Shown here in pieces: positions 451-62,174 of a DNA stretch of 64,000 bases. Positions within the stretch are counted from its first letter, which is position 1; every line of letters starts with the position of its first letter. A program made the position numbers and the translations under genes. The DNA comes from Sulfolobales archaeon (GTDB lineage: Archaea > Thermoproteota > Thermoprotei_A > Sulfolobales > AG1), in assembly GCA_038867615.1 (NCBI GenBank), contig JAWBYA010000001.1:192001-256000 (forward strand), in the 5' to 3' direction. Below the pieces are notes generated by a model. It was given only the letters and a program-made list of their open reading frames with translations. It did not search any database and was not told the origin of the DNA.

Positions 451-550
<100 letters not shown>

Positions 551-20664: not shown

Positions 20665-21283
20665 CCCTCCCCTCGAGCCAGAGTTCTAGGTATGATTTAA
20701 CAATATGGTTCCCAGTGATCCCTATGAGGCTCTTAAACTTCTTAATCCTCTCGAGAAACTCTTCGGGGGAGCTTACACCCTCAACCTCGATCTCGACGAA
20801 CCTTCCTACGGCTTCAACATCGTCCAGGAAGATCTTGTACACGCCGAGCCTATAGATCTTTCTCCTCTTTCTAATAATATGGCTCTTGAACCCGAGTCTT
20901 CTAAAGATCTCGACAAGCCCTCTTGGATCCCTCACCTCGACTGTGATCTCATCCCTGGCCTTGAGATCCCTCCTGATCTTCGGGCCTTTATATGTTATCT
21001 CACCCCTCCTGCTCCTGCTACCCTCAGAGATCCTCACCCTCAGAGCCTCATCCCTCTCTCTAAGCTTGATACACGGATAGAGATCTATATAGTGATCCTC
21101 CTCAAATACCTCCTCCTCATAAACAGCGCCTAGTGATCTAAGAGCCCTCTCTATATCGCTGTGATCCTTGACCTCAAACTTAGCCTCATACTCCATAACC
21201 ATCTCTCCAGCCCCAGGATTCAATAGATAATCTAGAGTAATAACCAAAACACTGTATAAACATAACCAAAACTGTTCTGCCAC
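20648..21283 (-). CDS. cyaB: CYTH / class IV adenylate cyclase family protein (true start probably at MVMEYE)
   Basis: EYEAKF, LRVR, TYKGPK, KRRKIY, FVEIE and SYLEL motifs. Confidence 0.88.
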   Translation of the reverse strand: MAEQFWLCLYSVLVITLDYLLNPGAGEMVMEYEAKFEVKDHSDIERALRSLGAVYEEEVFEEDHYIDLYPCIKLRERDEALRVRISEGSRSRRGEITYKGPKIRRDLKARDEITVEVRDPRGLVEIFRRLGFKSHIIRKRRKIYRLGVYKIFLDDVEAVGRFVEIEVEGVSSPEEFLERIKKFKSLIGITGNHIVKSYLELWLEGRGGEET

Positions 21284-21450
21284 TATTTAGGATTTCACAT
21301 AGGTTTAAGGATTGATATTAGTTCTTAGGATCTAGCTCACTATATCGCGTGCTCTGAAATACAAGCTATAGGGATCGCCTATCCATAACATATTTCATAA
21401 AAACCCAAGCAGTCAGATCGAGAGCCGGGATTAGAAGGCTTCCTCATAGT

Positions 21451-21836
21451 GGGCTGTTTTCTTTTGATATATATAAGGAGGATTAGTAGGTTTTGGAAAT
21501 TTTCATGGATATAGGGGCAATGCCTGTGGGCTGCTTTCCTGCTAACACCCAGGGGTATTTATAGTCCTTGAAATGTATTGCCCCCAGTGTGGATCTTTCC
21601 CCACAAGCCCTAGATGGGAGCCGCGGCCGTTTGGCTCGACGGTCGCCCATGACCCCGCAGGATTAGAGATCCGAGATCCTGAGGGTGGAGGCGAAAACCC
21701 CTGGATGTGACCATGAATAAAATGAGTGGAATGAGCATCCGGGGACAAACGGTTATCATGAAGAGGTTGGTGTCCATGAAGCTAAGGACTGGATAGCTAG
21801 TATAGGTGATATCAATCTCTATGAGGTTCGAACCTC
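21451..21836 (+). mobile_element. non-autonomous composite element 'C' (family-B-type left end and TATA, omega-RNA-like body, family-A-like right end)
   Basis: GGGCTG(T/C)TTTC at 21451 and about 21528 matches the family B left end. Block 21609-21661 matches family B. The 3' end ATCAATCTCTATGAGGTTCGAACCTC resembles the family A right end. Confidence 0.6.
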
Positions 21837-21919
21837 GATACATAAGCCAGTTCCTCTGGTCATGCTTGGTTGCTGGAGATAAGCTCTTCAGCGCTTAGTA
21901 GTAGTGATAGTGGGTATAG

Positions 21920-30305: not shown

Positions 30306-30332
30306 GCAGTATCAAAGGGTGAGGCAGTGGAG

Positions 30333-30676
30333 CCGTAGCCAGCTGCTTCGAGTTTCATGATGGTTTATAGGGGTTGATATCGAATTTATCTCTGTGAAAC
30401 ATTATATAAGCTCTTATATTTCACTGGGATGCCCGCCCAACAATGAGGGTGGGATAGAGATCCAAGTGGGCGGGGTAAATGCAGAGAGATCCAGGATGTG
30501 GGGGTTTCCCCACAGCAATGAACCAGAGAAAATCTATGAGGGGGAGCTGTGGGTTGGGGTCACCTCGAACGGGTGGAGGCCAAGGATATGGGCTCCAATG
30601 AAAGGAGCCCTGAGGCCAATGAAGCCAAGGGCTGAGCGGTTGATATCAATATCAACCACAATGAAGCCCGAACCCC
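30333..30676 (+). mobile_element. family A non-autonomous element, copy A1 (IS607-like, omega-RNA-like cassette)
   Basis: Aligns end to end with 43505-43853 and 61905-62165 (reverse strand). CC at both ends, TATA at 30402-30409, hairpin GGTTGATAT-CA-ATATCAACC at 30638-30657. Confidence 0.85.
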
Positions 30677-31058
30677 GGGCTATTAGATCTTAAGCATGGA
30701 AAAACACTATAATCACGTCAGAGCGATATCTATACACTCCACCAACATGCTATGGTGTGGTTAAAGATCTCTCTATGGAAGATCTCCTAGCGTTGCTGGG
30801 ACCCTCGTGTAGCGAGTACTAATTAGTAAGAGGCATTCTGTGCAATGGTTCGTGGATATATTTTGAAACAGGGTTTGCATGGAAGCAAACTCATAGCCAG
30901 GTCGTATTAATAAAGCTCCTATAGATCTTTCTTCACAGCATTGGTGGAAAAACGATTCTCTCTAAGGCAATTCCACTCTATAGATAATTGCATTGATTTC
31001 TCATTCTTATTCAATATATTTATAAAGCCAGAGAAATTATTGTTCTGAGGCGACCTTT

Positions 31059-35537: not shown

Positions 35538-35572
35538 GCAGGGCACCAATTTTATAATGTATGGGGGTATAA

Positions 35573-35755
35573 GGGGTTTGGGTTTCATTGTTGCTGATAT
35601 TGCTTGATATCAACCGCTCTTCATAGATCCTCTCCTGCTCAGGCTGCTTTGGGATCTTCTCATCCTGGCTCTACCGTAAAATACATAGAACTTATATGAC
35701 GTTTTCGCAGAACCACGATTTGAACCCTCATGGAACTCGAAACGGTTAGCTATGA
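35573..35755 (-). mobile_element. family A element, short degenerate copy A4
   Basis: Both ends are recognisable (GGGGTTTGGGTTTCATTG...GATATCAACCGCTC and GCAGAACCACGA...CATGGAACTCGAAACGGTTAGCTAT) around a short unrelated interior. Confidence 0.7.
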
Positions 35756-38230: not shown

Positions 38231-39439
38231 ATGGTTCTATGGCTTATAGCTCTAAGATCTGGGGCGTTATGGTTGGTGGAAAAGAGTGTTGTGATCGTTG
38301 CAAGCTGGCTTGGCTGGTTCTCGGTATTCCTAGTCAGGTTTGCACCAGCGCCGGTGCTTATATTGATAGAGAGGAGTTTTAACCTAACCCACGGAGAGGC
38401 GAGCCTGATCTTTACGAGCTATCTGCTAGCATATGCGGTGATGCAGATCCCTGCAGGGGTGTTGAGTGATAGGATAAACCCATCTAGAGTTATAGCTATA
38501 GGTCTCGCGATCATGACGGTTTCCGGCTTCGCTATGGGTTTAAGCCCGACCTTTGTAACAATGATCATTTTATCGTTTCTAACAGGCGTGGGTGCGGGGA
38601 CTTTCTATACATCGAGCACGTCTCTGCTCTCACTCTTATTCCCACCGCGTGAGAGGGAAAAGGTTCTCGGGATAGCATATTCAGGGATAGGTACAGGAAC
38701 CTCTGCAGCAATAGCTATCGGGGGGTTTCTTGGCAACCTGCTAGGGTGGAGGGGGATCTTCTTTGCACTAGCAATACCAGGTGCTGTGAGCGCGTTTCTC
38801 TTCACAAGGATAAAGATCCCTGCTCCCAATAAACCCCGTGGGAGTGGTTTCTCAAGCCTGGGGTTAGAGGTTCTCAGGATTAGGTCTATAGCGATCTGCA
38901 TAGTGATCCATGCATTGATACTGGTAACATATTTTGGTATCACGTCATTCACACCAACCTATATAGCGATATCGATAGGTAAGAGCCTGGTTGAGGCGGG
39001 CTTATTATTCCTAGTATTCCCCTTATCAGAGATCTTGGGCGGGCTTGTGGGGGGATATATGGCTAGCAGGATCGGTTCCAAAAGGGTTCTCATGATAAGC
39101 CTTCTATCGATCTCTATAGGAACTGCAGCGATCCCGTTCATGAGGTCAGAGATCTATGTAGTCCCTATTCTATCTATTATTGGCTTGATGTTTCGGGCAG
39201 CTGCCACAACCCTTCCACTGATCGTGGTTGAGAATACCCCAAGACATATACTTGGAGCTGTTCTTGGCTGGTATAACTCCACAGGCTTTGTGGGAGCTTC
39301 TATAGGGCCCTATATGTTTGGCTATATAGCAGATCTACACGGGTTTCTCCTATCCTATATAGCCCTCTCCTTCTTCCCACTCGTGTCTGTAATGCTGCTG
39401 CGTATGTTCAAAACGGGTTATGCAGCTAAAAACACATAG
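38231..39439 (+). CDS. MFS transporter
   Basis: About 12 TM segments; motif A GVLSDRINP. Confidence 0.9.
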   Translation: MVLWLIALRSGALWLVEKSVVIVASWLGWFSVFLVRFAPAPVLILIERSFNLTHGEASLIFTSYLLAYAVMQIPAGVLSDRINPSRVIAIGLAIMTVSGFAMGLSPTFVTMIILSFLTGVGAGTFYTSSTSLLSLLFPPREREKVLGIAYSGIGTGTSAAIAIGGFLGNLLGWRGIFFALAIPGAVSAFLFTRIKIPAPNKPRGSGFSSLGLEVLRIRSIAICIVIHALILVTYFGITSFTPTYIAISIGKSLVEAGLLFLVFPLSEILGGLVGGYMASRIGSKRVLMISLLSISIGTAAIPFMRSEIYVVPILSIIGLMFRAAATTLPLIVVENTPRHILGAVLGWYNSTGFVGASIGPYMFGYIADLHGFLLSYIALSFFPLVSVMLLRMFKTGYAAKNT

Positions 39440-40907: not shown

Positions 40908-41123
40908 ATTTCAATTCTATAGTAGATCGACCCTGCGAAGTCATGGTTTGCTTTTAGCCTAACGACATTGGGGTTTCCATCTAGGTTCGAGAGATCATTC
41001 CCTGGGCGGCTTGAAGCTCTGCTCCCATCACCGTCCAGGGTCAGTATTGAGATCAACTCATCACCAGAAACAATTCCGATCAAAGCTTATAAATACCTCC
41101 CACGAGTATCAATAAGAAAACAG
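40908..41123 (-). repeat. family B unit B1: promoter, conserved body, single CRISPR-like repeat (40908-40931)
   Basis: Aligns with 47136-47355 and with the interrupted 43408-43970; ends in GTCGATCTACTATAGAATTGAAAT on the minus strand. Confidence 0.85.
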
Positions 41124-43259: not shown

Positions 43260-43407
43260 ATATCCCTAACAATCCTGTGTTTAAGGGGTATATAAATACT
43301 AGGCGAAAAAGATCTTTTTATTACCATGAAAAAGTAAAAACCTATCCCTTTCTATTAATAGCTACTTGGTATGCTATCTCAGCGGCTTTCTCGCCAGAGA
43401 GAAGCAT

Positions 43408-43970
43408 CTTTCAATTCTATAGTAGATCGACCCTGTGGGTTTGTTGATGACTGTTGAGCCCAGCTGCATAGGGCTTCTATCTATTGTGAGATCATTCCCT
43501 AGATGGGGTTCGGGCTTCATAGCGGTTGATTTTGCTTGATATCAACCGCTCAGCCCTTGGTTTCATAGGCCTCAGGGCCCCTTTCATTGGAGCCCTTATC
43601 ACTGGCCTCCACCCGTTCGGGGTGACCCCAACCCACAGCTTCCCTTCATTGCATTGCTCTGGTTCATTGCTGTGGGGAACCCCTGCATTTTGGATTTTAT
43701 TTAACCCGCCCCTCGGGTCTCTATCTCTATCCTCATTGTTGGGCGGCATCCCAGTGAAATATAAGAGCTTATATAAGGTTACATTACTGCAGAACTACGA
43801 GCTTAATATCAACCCCTATAAACCACCATGAAGCTCGAAGCAGCTGGCTACGGCTTGGAGCTATGCTCCCATCACCACCTAGAGTCAATATTGAGATCAA
43901 CTCATCACCAGAAACAATTTTAATCAGATATTATAAATCTTTACATAGGATATCAGTAAGAAAAACAGCC
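43408..43970 (-). repeat. family B unit B2, interrupted by element A2; repeat at 43408-43431
   Basis: Contains GTCGATCTACTATAGAATTGAAAG; the two halves rejoin at a GG when 43505-43853 is removed. Confidence 0.85.
43505..43853 (-). mobile_element. family A element, copy A2 (nested in B2)
   Basis: Full-length match to A1; GG at both ends and no longer target duplication. Confidence 0.88.
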
Positions 43971-44130
43971 TGTTATAATTATGTCGCCCTTCGAGTACTC
44001 CTTGATCATGTTGTGAAGGCTTCTGCGAAGATTCTCTTACTAGCTATGTCTTTCACTTCTAAGCCTTTCTTAGGGTATTTATAAGTATTCTATAGATAAT
44101 CTATTTATGGGTTCCTTTTTTAAAGCGGGA

Positions 44131-47135: not shown

Positions 47136-47355
47136 TTTTCAATTCTATAGTAGATCGATCCCATGGGTTTATGGGCTGCCGTCGAGCCAAACAGCACTTG
47201 ACTCCCATCTAGGTTTAAGGGATCATCCCCCGGATGGCTCGGAGCATTGCTCCCATCACCACCCAGAATCAACATGGAGATCAACTCATCACCAAAAACA
47301 ATTCCAACCATAAGATTATAAATCTTTCCCACGAATATTAAAAAGAAAACAGCCC
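47136..47355 (-). repeat. family B unit B3; repeat at 47136-47159
   Basis: ATCGATCTACTATAGAATTGAAAA; body aligns with B1, B2 and 21609-21661. Confidence 0.85.
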
Positions 47356-57163: not shown

Positions 57164-60145
57164 TTAAGTCGATCTACTAAAGAATTGGGAGAGATCGCGG
57201 TAGAGCTCTACAAGCATCTCCTCCACATCCTCTCTCCTCAAGCTCGGTTGCAGGGCTTTTAACACCATGGTATCTAGCTCGATCCTTTTTTCCTGGGGCG
57301 GGAAGTATTGTTCCGGCAGTCTTTTTAGCTCGGAGTGTTTGAACATATCGAAGATCTCTGAGAGAGTGTTGATCTTACCTTCTGGAAGTGATGTGATATC
57401 AAGGACTGGGAGGAGTTTCCAGTGGGTTATTTTAAGACTGCTCCACGCACCCTCGGTCTCCTCCCTGTGGGCTATGATGCTCATAATCCCCCATGTGGTG
57501 TTAAGCCATAGGCATAGCGCTTTGAGCTTTCTATCATCGTTGCCTGTTTTGAGTCTAACGGCATAGAATATGTTTGAGAGTACAGGTTTTGTAACATAGA
57601 TCGCTGTTACATGGGCTGTGTTGAGCCTTATTCTCTCTGGGACGAGGAGGCTGCTTGCAAACCTCTCAAATATTCTTCTCGCTTTCCCATCCTTCGGAAG
57701 GATCCGGGCGTTAGGATCGGTCTGTAACCGGGTTCTCAACTCTTCTCCCCCACCATATAGGGCTGGCAGAGATCCTGGCGCCTCTGCAGCTCTTCTAAAG
57801 CTATCGTGGAATTGATGCCTGTCAATCCCGATCACCGCTATCTCTCCAAGCCTCTTAACCGGGATCCTTATCTCTCTAGCTCCAAGCCTTATACTACCCT
57901 CTAGCAGCTCTAACACATAGTTTGAGAGCCGCGGGTTTGTGAATGCTAATAGCTTTCCCCAGTTATCCAGGTGCTTTAGAAGCAATCGCCTCGGGATCGT
58001 ATATACAATGCCACAAGATCTTCCAGCCTCTACATTGCTGCCTAGGCTGCTGCTCCCTAGCGTTATATCTATCTCAGCGGCTTTCCCACACCTATCTATG
58101 ATTTCATGTGCCAGCCATACTCCCTCAAGTGCTGTTTTAGGTTTTCTGACCAGGTTTGCTATGCATGTTCTCTCATCCTCAACATGCTTATCAACCCTCC
58201 TTGCGATCACGAGGCACTCGCTCAGGTCTGTAGATTCGCTAAAACCATAGCCTTCTTCGGGATCGTTGCTAACAATAACATATTCTAGGTGGAATCTCGA
58301 TGCTAAGAACGATCGTGCGAGGAACCAGCTTATCCCTGACAAGAGATTCCTGGGTAGAACAAACGCTATCCTACCCCCCTCTTTTACCAGCTCCCCAGCA
58401 ATGTATAGGAAGAGGAGCCCTTCACCAGCCTGTCCAATCTCTAGGAAGGTTTTTACACCTTCCCCGCTGAGTGAGGTTTCTAGTTCTTTCAGGAAAGCCT
58501 TTCCCTCGCTAGTCTCGGATAACATGTATCTCACATATTCTCTAAGTCTCTTGTAGGATCTGAGGAGCTTCTCCCTAGCATGCTTATCCACTATAAAGCC
58601 GAAGAGCCCTGATTCTTTCCTGCCGCCTCTTCCAGTTGCTCTGGTGAAGGGAGGGTTCATTATGATTAGGTCAAACCTTTCTGGAAGATCTATTATTTCT
58701 TCCTTCCTAGAGGCAGAGATCCTGATTATACCTCTGCTCCTCGGAGGGTTTGCAAGAATCCTCTGCACTAGATCCAGGCTTCCCATAGATACAGATCCGT
58801 TAGGGCCTATTCCAAGCGGTGCTGTGTAGATATTCATGCTTTGTGGAGAAGCTTCGGGATTATGGAGGGCAAGGATCGTGGTTGTTATATATGTTGCGAA
58901 TCTAAGGGAATCCAACCCCCAGAGGGTTTTCTCCAAAACAGTCCTGTGGAAGCCCTCAACATCGACTTCCAACCCTTCTTTCAAGCGATCTCTGGTATAG
59001 AGGTATAGAAGACCATCGTAAGAGGCTGAGAGAAGAGTTCCCGAGCCGCATGCTAGATCGGCTATTCTGAAATTATCAAGAGAGCTGAGGCTCTGCCACG
59101 CCTGGTTTGGGGTTGTAAGGGCTAGTCTGGCAAGCAGGTACGATGAAGGTATGCTTGTAAAATATGTTGCTAGGTTCTTCCTAACAGCCCAGCTCCCTAC
59201 TATTGTATGGTATATCTTGCCCGCGAAATCGCGTCTCAACAAGGTCTTGTTGCTTGCTATGCTGCTTGCAAAGCCGATCAGATCCATGATCGCTTGTTGA
59301 GCGTCTATAGGGAGTTTTTCAACGATCTCCTTGGCAATGCTGAAGATCGGTTGGTTGTTTATTTTAACAATACTATCGAAGGCTTTCTCAAGGGCTGGTA
59401 GGCCGTTTCTCCCTCCTACCAGGCTTTCCAGGGGTTTGAGGCCGTGTTTGGCTCTTATACTCTCATAGAGTATGGCGCTTAGGAGGATAGCTAGGGCTGC
59501 TTTACCATAGATCATTTCCTTGATATCCTCTACCTCTCCTATGGAGATGCCGTAGAGTTTATGGAAAACATTGTAGAGCTCTCTACATATAGATAGATCT
59601 CTATCCACAGAGCCTAGGGTTTTGATTAGCCGGTTGATAAGCTTCTCTATCTCCTCCTCGGCTTTTCTAATCATTTCCTCCAAAACCAGGTGCTGGATCG
59701 CTTGGTCTATGCTATCCCTTAGAAGGGGTACATCGACCCTAAGCCACCCTTGCGTGAGCAGCTCTCGCGGAGATTCCTTAGATCTCTTCTCCAAGAAGCG
59801 CGATAGATTTCTCGTCACATCTTCTCCGGGTATGAAGAACCTAGCCCTCAATACAGATCTTTCCAAGATCTCCTCGATCTCATCCTCCGCAACTTCCTCA
59901 GGAAAAGCCTGTCTATCATACCAGATAGCTACGGCTATGTCGCAAAGCCCGCTCTCAAGCCTCTCTATCGCATTTCTTTCAGCAACACGAGCTTCGTAGG
60001 ATCCTTCGAGGGCTATTCTGAAACCCTTATACAGAAGAACTATGCCTGTAGAACCATCTATATATATCTCAACCCTCTCTTTAAAACCATGCCTCCCAAG
60101 CAGCCGGGCTAAGGTCCTGCTAACCCTACCTTCATCGATACCCAA
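57164..60145 (-). CDS. type IIG-like fused restriction-modification protein / large N6-adenine methylase
   Basis: DLACGSG, NPPFTR, C-terminal TRD-like region and an N-terminal segment with IALEGS. Confidence 0.85.
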   Translation of the reverse strand: MGIDEGRVSRTLARLLGRHGFKERVEIYIDGSTGIVLLYKGFRIALEGSYEARVAERNAIERLESGLCDIAVAIWYDRQAFPEEVAEDEIEEILERSVLRARFFIPGEDVTRNLSRFLEKRSKESPRELLTQGWLRVDVPLLRDSIDQAIQHLVLEEMIRKAEEEIEKLINRLIKTLGSVDRDLSICRELYNVFHKLYGISIGEVEDIKEMIYGKAALAILLSAILYESIRAKHGLKPLESLVGGRNGLPALEKAFDSIVKINNQPIFSIAKEIVEKLPIDAQQAIMDLIGFASSIASNKTLLRRDFAGKIYHTIVGSWAVRKNLATYFTSIPSSYLLARLALTTPNQAWQSLSSLDNFRIADLACGSGTLLSASYDGLLYLYTRDRLKEGLEVDVEGFHRTVLEKTLWGLDSLRFATYITTTILALHNPEASPQSMNIYTAPLGIGPNGSVSMGSLDLVQRILANPPRSRGIIRISASRKEEIIDLPERFDLIIMNPPFTRATGRGGRKESGLFGFIVDKHAREKLLRSYKRLREYVRYMLSETSEGKAFLKELETSLSGEGVKTFLEIGQAGEGLLFLYIAGELVKEGGRIAFVLPRNLLSGISWFLARSFLASRFHLEYVIVSNDPEEGYGFSESTDLSECLVIARRVDKHVEDERTCIANLVRKPKTALEGVWLAHEIIDRCGKAAEIDITLGSSSLGSNVEAGRSCGIVYTIPRRLLLKHLDNWGKLLAFTNPRLSNYVLELLEGSIRLGAREIRIPVKRLGEIAVIGIDRHQFHDSFRRAAEAPGSLPALYGGGEELRTRLQTDPNARILPKDGKARRIFERFASSLLVPERIRLNTAHVTAIYVTKPVLSNIFYAVRLKTGNDDRKLKALCLWLNTTWGIMSIIAHREETEGAWSSLKITHWKLLPVLDITSLPEGKINTLSEIFDMFKHSELKRLPEQYFPPQEKRIELDTMVLKALQPSLRREDVEEMLVELYRDLSQFFSRST
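57168..57191 (+). repeat. degenerate CRISPR-like repeat overlapping the last codons of the methylase gene
   Basis: GTCGATCTACTAAAGAATTGGGAG; its first 20 nt are 19/20 identical to the B repeat. Confidence 0.7.
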
Positions 60146-61845: not shown

Positions 61846-61904
61846 AGTCTCCACCGGATCCTAGTTTTTCCCAGCAAGGTTTTTGGTAAGCCGTGATCCT
61901 ATGT

Positions 61905-62165
61905 GGGGTTCGGGCTTCATTGCGGTTGATATTGATATCAACCGCTCTTCCCTTGGCTTCATAGGCCTCAGGGCTCCTTTCATTGGGGCCCATATCCTGG
62001 ATCTCTCTGTATTTACCCCGCCCACTCGGGTCTTTATTTTTTACCCTCATTGTTGGGCAGCATCCCATAGAATAACAGGGCTTATATAATGTTCATTACT
62101 GCAGAACTACGGGTTTAATATCAACCCCTATAAACCACCATGAAACCTGAAACAGCCGGCTATGG
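61905..62165 (-). mobile_element. family A element, internally deleted copy A3
   Basis: Both ends match A1 and A2; about 85 nt is missing between two AGGAT(G/A)TGGG motifs. Confidence 0.85.
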
Positions 62166-62174
62166 CGGTGACAA

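Follow-up and report, generated by a model that had tools for sequence, protein, structure and literature searches.

Miniature transposons of a Sulfolobales archaeon in which part of an omega-RNA scaffold is joined to a host CRISPR repeat

The genome of the hot-spring archaeon analysed here carries a family of miniature elements (family B) that is a real mobile chimera of a TnpB-derived element of type C and a CRISPR repeat of the host, the repeat forming the right end of the element. Family B is a sister lineage of C and stems from a single ancestral fusion, while element C is of an already known, ordinary kind and amounts to a stand-alone omega-RNA gene. Taken jointly, the best explanation of the observations is that C is an insertion sequence deprived of tnpB, that B goes back to one fusion event and that B employs the repeat as its working right end, a combined reading that we regard as probable. 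The comparisons presented below document the ancestry, architecture and boundaries of the elements, their insertion polymorphism and their conservation at the family level. To our knowledge, a protein can be equipped with a programmable guide in two known ways, by TnpB omega RNAs and by CRISPR repeats, which have been considered linked only by deep evolution, i.e. through the descent of Cas12 from TnpB. Among the papers returned by the literature searches, none describes an omega-RNA/CRISPR-repeat chimeric transposon.

Genomes and searches

The window, i.e. the whole stretch of 64,000 nucleotides under analysis, corresponds to positions 192001-256000 of contig C1 in G000, an archaeal genome of 2.2 Mb (46% GC, 94% complete). 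Two sister genomes, G002 and G003, were used for the comparison of filled and empty sites. Relatives of the TnpB proteins were collected as 97 stretches across Desulfurococcales-like genomes, and the best protein matches (85-95% identity) belong to records named Desulfurococcaceae archaeon AG1 and to a Sulfolobales MAG. TATA-like boxes and promoters were read by eye. The omega-RNA scaffold set results from a profile search of G000 and of the tnpB loci of the relatives, which gave 77 full-length matches; these comprise 75 distinct sequences, 24 from G000 and 51 from relatives.

A search of the whole window with Rfam yields two tRNAs as sole matches at gathering score, and element C and unit B1 give nothing but sub-threshold noise. 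The tRNA model match at window 451-550 extends over 100 nt against 71 model positions, and therefore probably represents an intron-containing tRNA.

Extent and target site of element C

The features of the window that belong to element C and to family B are listed in Table 1. In the earlier note, element C was thought to continue for about 175 nt beyond the GCAGG motif, up to position 21836, and to finish in a right end like that of a second family of miniature elements (family A). Neither is borne out. The alignment of 21 full-length C copies has a common 3' end, ...GGGACAAACGG, which corresponds to window position 21752 and lies 91 nt past GCAGG; the scaffold tail of the copy in the window ends ...ACAAACGG. 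Both ends are sharp and common to all 21 full-length C-type copies. G003 lacks exactly the nucleotides 21454-21752, and its empty site reads ...ATAGTGGG, directly followed by the right flank. The sequence of 21753-21772 follows TGGG in this empty site, save for two single-base indels. The junctions read at element C against G003 possess neither terminal inverted repeats nor a target duplication. The empty sites of both families (in G003 for C and in G000 for B) show that the elements insert 3' of a short motif and duplicate no target sequence. Of the copies caught by the left-end pattern, 11 of 13 in the C type and 9 of 11 in family B have GGG in front of the left end.

The left-end motif, GGG followed by CTG(T/C)TTTC, is present twice in element C, at 21451/21454 as GGG+CTGTTTTC and at 21528/21531 as GGG+CTGCTTTCC; the second copy is directly followed by GGTATTTATA, as in B1. 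The earlier note had read this doubled family B left end correctly. Helix P1 of the scaffold is absent from the window copy, visible as a gap in the copy alignment. BLASTN with window 21401-21900 results in 42 non-self matches on 8 contigs, and nhmmer with element C on G000 in 49 matches, which represent 41 loci, 21 of them full length.

In G002 (C45:7870-7876), 7 nt stand in place of about 570 nt of the window (21270-21841), comprising element C together with flanks of 185 and 90 nt. Deletions beginning at the right end of such elements, or close to it, are found repeatedly, e.g. in G003 at the C1:143599 site. Another C-type miniature element (C1:282819-283165) ends 83 nt before a Cas6 gene (C1:283248-284219), a position that may be due to chance.

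Table 1. Positions, strands and bases of the element C and family B features in the window
Feature	Position	Strand	Basis
GGG of the target site (transposon-adjacent motif ~NGGG), outside element C	21451-21453	+	kept in G003 empty site
Element C, 299 nt, non-autonomous: left end of a TnpB insertion sequence and omega-RNA right end	21454-21752	+	copy alignment, G003 empty site
Left-end part of element C: terminal motif, second copy of this motif at 21531, TATA-like TTTATA 21558-21563, short stem region	21454-21608	+	
Omega-RNA scaffold remnant of C: P2, long-range P3, P4, P5, conserved tail	21609-21752	+	
Putative guide: flank directly 3' of the C scaffold	21753-21772	+	role inferred from TnpB biology
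B1: left end, TATA 41088-41093, 5' half of omega scaffold, CRISPR repeat 40908-40931	40908-41123	-	
B2: repeat 43408-43431, split by family-A miniature element 43505-43851	43408-43968	-	
B3: complete B unit, repeat 47136-47159, TATA 47317-47322	47136-47352	-	

Ancestry of element C

G000 possesses two full-size copies of about 1.5 kb (C1:780-2284 and C2:203162-204658), in which the left and right ends of C lie about 1.2 kb apart. The ORFs enclosed by these copies match the TnpB zinc-ribbon domain PF07282 (463-aa ORF, E=5.6e-11; split ORF, E=2.3e-12). Since the same left and right ends surround tnpB in both copies, element C is a tnpB-deleted miniature and stems from an IS1341-like insertion sequence of the IS200/IS605 kind that encodes TnpB only. 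The two copies also bear out the suggestion of the earlier note that block 21609-21661 represents a tnpB 3' end and thereby omega-RNA scaffold. In the intact full-size copy (L001), the right half of C overlaps the tnpB ORF region over its final ~190 nt. Upstream of the ORF, the left end is arranged as in C, its TATA-like box being located about 25 nt before the start. With this left end and its putative tnpB promoter joined directly to the omega-scaffold right end, the promoter would drive the scaffold directly in element C. The element inserts just 3' of NGGG.

Element C resembles the non-autonomous derivatives of IS200/IS605 (PATE or IS1341-like miniatures) in having its ends in common with a tnpB-bearing element, in lacking inverted terminal repeats and a target duplication, in its insertion 3' of a short motif, and in a right end formed by the omega-RNA scaffold, behind which the flank would provide the guide. 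Unlike in PATE-type elements, no match to the Y1 (TnpA) transposase (PF01797) is found in G000, G002 and G003, the three genomes holding B, and this is a point against the best explanation. Within the family, Y1 transposases occur in three of 14 genomes (a strong match in G004, at C18:15560-15916, a fragment in G005, and G007). Family B differs from the PATE type also in that nearly all of the right end is gone and a CRISPR repeat stands at its terminus instead. An IS607-type serine transposase was considered as mobiliser and rejected: the sole ORF with a resolvase domain (C23) scores as an invertase-like recombinase of generic type and is unconnected with the elements.

TnpB is found at five places in G000. 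G003 contains a full-size tnpB element of 1.5 kb with ends of the C family (C4:120396-121889), where G000 has 113 nt (window ~38750-38862).

Family A consists of miniature elements of ~350 nt and is present in the window at 43505-43851, 30331-30677 and 61896-62171, with a partial copy at 35568-35619. It is a larger family, with 96 nhmmer matches in G000. In one half of its length, family A matches the three remaining tnpB genes at their 3' ends (C1:12505-12711, C1:51549-51745 and C6:25093-25290) and thus represents a second omega-RNA-derived family. Neither the 3' part of C nor its flank has significant similarity to the ~350-nt family, which we take to be the family A of the earlier note (best E=0.19).

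The omega-RNA scaffold

The omega scaffold is a conserved structured RNA supported by covariation. RNAalifold and pair counts over the 75 sequences give the helices P1/P1b, P2, the long-range P3, part of P4, and P5 near the right end, with compensatory pairs in P1, P2, P3 and P5; for example, one P5 pair is AU in 47 and CG in 19 sequences, and one P1 pair is CG in 36 and GC in 28 (n=75). The scaffold overlaps the tnpB 3' end and stops at the transposon boundary. Its best-conserved block is an 11-nt tail with an identity of 0.80 among the G000 copies and 0.94 among the relatives. Immediately 3' of this tail, identity drops to 0.26-0.27, as expected for a guide. CCGUU in a loop and AACGG in the tail are complementary in 65-72 of the 75 sequences; because they are invariant, this pseudoknot is a candidate pairing.

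According to PMC10097598, the 5' part of the ISDra2 omega RNA is dispensable, and its 3' 116 nt, with a guide-adjacent pseudoknot, form the scaffold. The C-type scaffold is likewise structured, overlaps the tnpB 3' end, has a candidate loop-tail pseudoknot and takes its putative guide from the transposon boundary. Compared with ISDra2 (PMC10097598), family B keeps the dispensable 5' half of the scaffold and loses the guide-proximal half, which is needed in ISDra2; by analogy, it would have lost the part that binds TnpB.

Architecture of family B

G000 has 186 repeat-like sites, 41 of them solitary, and 12 of these 41 possess the architecture of family B. In these units, a short left end with a TATA-like box, identical in kind to the left end of C, is followed by P1, P1b, P2 and the 5' strand of P4, up to ...GCAGG, and then by a CRISPR repeat that is complete (24 nt) and oriented as in a crRNA. 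P5 is missing altogether, P3 and P4 lack their 3' strands, and the 11-nt tail remains in some copies only. About 90-95 nt of guide-proximal scaffold are thus replaced in B by one host CRISPR repeat. The junction between GCAGG and the repeat is identical in all B copies. The proposal of the earlier note that B is an omega-RNA cassette whose 3' part was replaced by a CRISPR repeat is supported; B1 indeed switches to the repeat after GCAGG (40908-40931, minus strand), where C goes on as scaffold.

Sequence similarity between the families is significant. Element C and B3 are 81.6% identical over 49 nt of the block 21609-21661 (BLASTN, E=4e-5 genome-wide; nhmmer, E=5e-4), and B3 matches the nearest C-type copy (C2:148734-148922 of G000) with 85% identity over 193 nt (E=3.7e-56), the match stopping 3 nt before the repeat. 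The similarity of this block to B units had been noted before, and at the level of the families the relationship is much stronger.

The B repeat is of the host's class 1, Cas6/type I-A kind. It is identical (24/24) to the repeat of a small array with two repeats (C1:487.9 kb) and agrees in 21/24 positions with the main array. Most B copies have their right terminus at the final base of the repeat, and unique flank starts right after it. The original 11-nt tail is kept behind the repeat in the C5:93962 group and in L119, and approximately so in L117, C4:201441 and C1:114579. Since the tail persists behind the repeat in these copies, the ancestral event was an internal replacement of ~90-95 nt.

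Copies extending from the left end through the repeat are confined to G000, G002 and G003 among the 41 genomes searched. In more distant genomes the match comprises the scaffold alone and corresponds to their tnpB 3' ends. A pattern scan of metagenomes for B yields 11 exact-pattern matches on 10 contigs, several of them at new loci. In B1 and B3, 156-157 nt separate the repeat from the TATA-like box upstream. Units B1-B3 have housekeeping genes as neighbours, and B units are dispersed and not situated beside tnpB. A second repeat within 155 nt downstream is present in none of the 12 units. No anti-repeat pairing is predicted in the B RNA, the fold of which consists of P1 and a repeat pairing with itself only.

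Solitary repeat-like units without an omega part form a second class of dispersed repeats. They are found at window 57168-57191 (+) and in G000 at C1:485791, 606100, 450530, 387802 and 578647, each preceded by a TATA-like box at a distance of about 25-35 nt.

Mobility and conservation of family B

Family B is insertion-polymorphic and has moved recently. G002 and G003 both lack B1 and B2, and G003 lacks B3 as well. At the B1 site, G002 and G003 hold ~600 nt of other sequence. The B2 site is occupied in both by an intact ORF, thiazole-synthase-like by reading of its sequence. B3 has a copy of 98% identity in G002, with 320 nt of coding-like sequence in its place in G003. The junctions of B1, B2 and B3 coincide within one base with the left-end terminus on the left and the repeat end on the right. 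At these three sites, the sister genomes hold 320-620 nt that G000 lacks; the B unit accordingly replaces target DNA there, and this is another point against the best explanation. A clean insertion is present at a single site among those examined: a 219-nt B unit (metagenome contig L137, 5536-5754), also present in G002, stands against 6 nt in G000 (C2:377912-377917), with the left junction after ...GGAG / ...AGGG and the right junction exactly at the repeat end. At C1:143599, the B unit of G000 and a C-type element of G003 have their left junction in common, and both are missing from G002. Other B loci are common to several genomes.

The thiazole-synthase-like gene at window ~43330-44060 is decayed in G000: its start codon is changed, a gap of 37 nt is present, and its interior is replaced by B2 and a family-A element.

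Among 14 independent loci, the mean pairwise identity amounts to 0.86 in the repeat, the best-conserved block, and to 0.55-0.76 in the scaffold parts. Within the repeat, conservation is lowest at the final base of the tag. Orthologous loci differ in 2/24, 4/24, 7/24 and 8/24 positions of the repeat, against 31/132, 12/131, 37/134 and 35/134 of the scaffold. The repeat thus decays about as fast as the scaffold at orthologous loci, and purifying selection at the level of the locus is therefore absent, a further point against the best explanation. Conservation in the family combined with decay at the locus points to a sequence that is needed at propagation, rather than to loci of benefit to the host. 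Diversification of the scaffold by gene conversion from the many C-type copies could be another source of the contrast in conservation. Orthologous B copies (L104 vs L113; L108 vs L116 and L121) differ by 9-28%, with flanks that are 92-95% identical. This faster divergence of the copies suggests gene conversion between copies or repeated re-insertion at the same site.

CRISPR-Cas context and transcription

The main array of the host (C1:626880-634739, ~8 kb) is adjoined by type I-A cas genes, and Cas1 is present. The host has two Cas6 genes (Pfam Cas6_N and CRISPR_Cas6), at C1:283248-284219 and C11:23289-24329; TIGR01877 gives weak matches only for Cas6. None of the 139 host spacers, searched against the genome, is directed against these elements or tnpB, and a single off-array match of 18 nt was obtained (E=8e-4). 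A search of GenBank phages with the 8.1-kb array gives no protospacer match.

Over 19.9 kb, the metatranscriptomes X3, X4 and X5 contribute 0, 0 and 135 reads; B bins are covered ~0.1-0.9x, a depth too low for B. Reads of X5 join repeats through a spacer of the main array on C1, and the array of this organism or of a near strain is therefore transcribed in the sample. Read 'joints' at B repeats were considered as B expression and rejected, the reads coming from the true array.

Discussion

Family B uses the left end and the target motif of C. In the proposed mechanism, the repeat would be retained because B needs it in order to propagate, as the sequence defining the working right end of the element. 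From the left-end promoter, scaffold, repeat and flank would be transcribed, and Cas6 would cut the RNA 8 nt before the repeat end.

The last two steps lead to readings in which the repeat acts through the CRISPR-Cas machinery of the host. That B is a guide cassette hijacking this machinery, with Cas6-cut crRNAs, the flank as spacer, and homing by class 1 effectors or Cas1-Cas2, seems unlikely to us; if true, effectors or Cas1-Cas2 at the repeat border would act on B's own vacant or neighbouring sites, which could explain target replacements beginning exactly at the repeat end. We hold a low opinion of the odds for its form as a guide swap, in which Cas6 makes a crRNA of 8-nt tag and right flank and type I-A/III complexes recognise the vacant site, resulting in retention or homing of the element. 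Flank beginning right after the end of the 8-nt tag in most B copies, the TATA-like box upstream of the repeat in B1 and B3, the Cas6, type I-A and Cas1 genes of the host, the transcription of the main array in X5, and conservation of the family rather than the locus, which fits selection on the element, are all consistent with it. However, GGG would precede the protospacer in the vacant site, whereas crenarchaeal type I-A systems have been reported to use CCN/TCN motifs, and the last base of the tag is the very position of the repeat that varies most. An improbable alternative is an RNA decoy, i.e. a transposon-borne solitary repeat that ties up Cas6 and Cas7 in aberrant complexes in the manner of Racrs, phage- and plasmid-borne RNA anti-CRISPRs, which are described in PMC10651486 as solitary repeat units on mobile elements, often just 3' of a promoter. 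In B, too, a mobile element carries a solitary repeat behind a promoter-like box, but ~156 nt separate the box from the repeat, the copies stand in the chromosome and undergo decay at orthologous loci, and, with no host spacer (139) targeting the elements or tnpB, no benefit of a decoy is evident. The repeat may alternatively be a site on the DNA, a putative binding site of Cbp2, a relative of Cbp1 that binds the DNA of CRISPR repeats and would modulate transcription or excision of the element. According to PMC10883916, Cbp1 binds repeat-like motifs in or beside ISC1229 in Sulfolobales, some of them more strongly than CRISPR repeats, and the 6-bp core of the Cbp site corresponds to the repeat's 3' end, a core that the repeats of Desulfurococcales, where Cbp2 is encoded, have conserved. 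ISC1229, though, belongs to another transposon family (IS110), and such a site alone does not account for the coincidence of repeat end and element terminus, so that this analogy has little chance of being the explanation.

Two further readings deny the repeat any present role or assign it a past one. If B were an inert relic, i.e. one accidental chimera in decay, the insertion polymorphism would reflect deletions in other genomes. Decay at orthologous loci and the messy, replacement-type sites agree with this, yet intact ORFs stand in G003 and G002 where G000 has B2 and B3, a clean empty site exists in G000 for the L137/G002 copy, and diverse copies all possess near-consensus repeats; we consider a relic very unlikely. 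The idea that B marks an evolutionary step from TnpB and its omega RNA to Cas12, or a transposon-derived leader that seeds arrays, had been raised in the earlier note, which took B units for chimeras of omega RNA and CRISPR repeat. The order of scaffold, repeat and variable sequence superficially resembles a fused tracrRNA/crRNA. The repeat, however, is of the class 1 Cas6 type, the scaffold part lost is the one needed in ISDra2, no anti-repeat pairing is predicted, and B units are dispersed among housekeeping genes and not beside tnpB, all of which speaks against an intermediate towards Cas12. As for a leader, a second repeat within 155 nt occurs in 0/12 units, and true array leaders look unlike B. 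Both variants are largely refuted and exceedingly improbable. The repeat as working right end of a mobile chimera remains our preferred reading.

Known systems resemble family B in part. A CRISPR array with leader needs at least two repeats and spacers, which B does not possess, and the guide module of type V (Cas12) systems comprises a type V repeat, anti-repeat pairing and an adjacent effector, none of which is found in B. Racrs (PMC10651486) and B have in common that a mobile element carries one host-like CRISPR repeat behind a promoter (putative in B), away from cas genes. In contrast to Racrs, B is carried by a chromosomal miniature transposon, in which the repeat is fused to an omega fragment and forms the transposon terminus. 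Cbp1 sites of ISC1229 are, like the B repeat, repeat-like motifs inside or in the 3' flank of crenarchaeal transposons (PMC10883916); the former are partial motifs in a different transposon family, against the full 24/24 repeat of B. Stand-alone repeat-like sequences that give rise to crRNA-like regulatory RNAs, including mini-arrays, are the subject of 10.1101/2023.03.03.530964; they are located in or beside cas loci and usually consist of two degenerate repeats, whereas B repeats are dispersed, single and mobile.

Significance

In family B, a living transposon lineage physically fuses an omega-RNA fragment, a host class 1 repeat and the flank, with the end of the repeat as the end of the transposon. 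Should the repeat be a surrogate DNA end only, B shows that transposons can recruit a CRISPR repeat as their terminus. Should it undergo processing, B would be the first transposon to borrow the class 1 CRISPR machinery of its host by means of a guide cassette. Either way, family B provides a concrete and testable system in a lineage of cultivable type.
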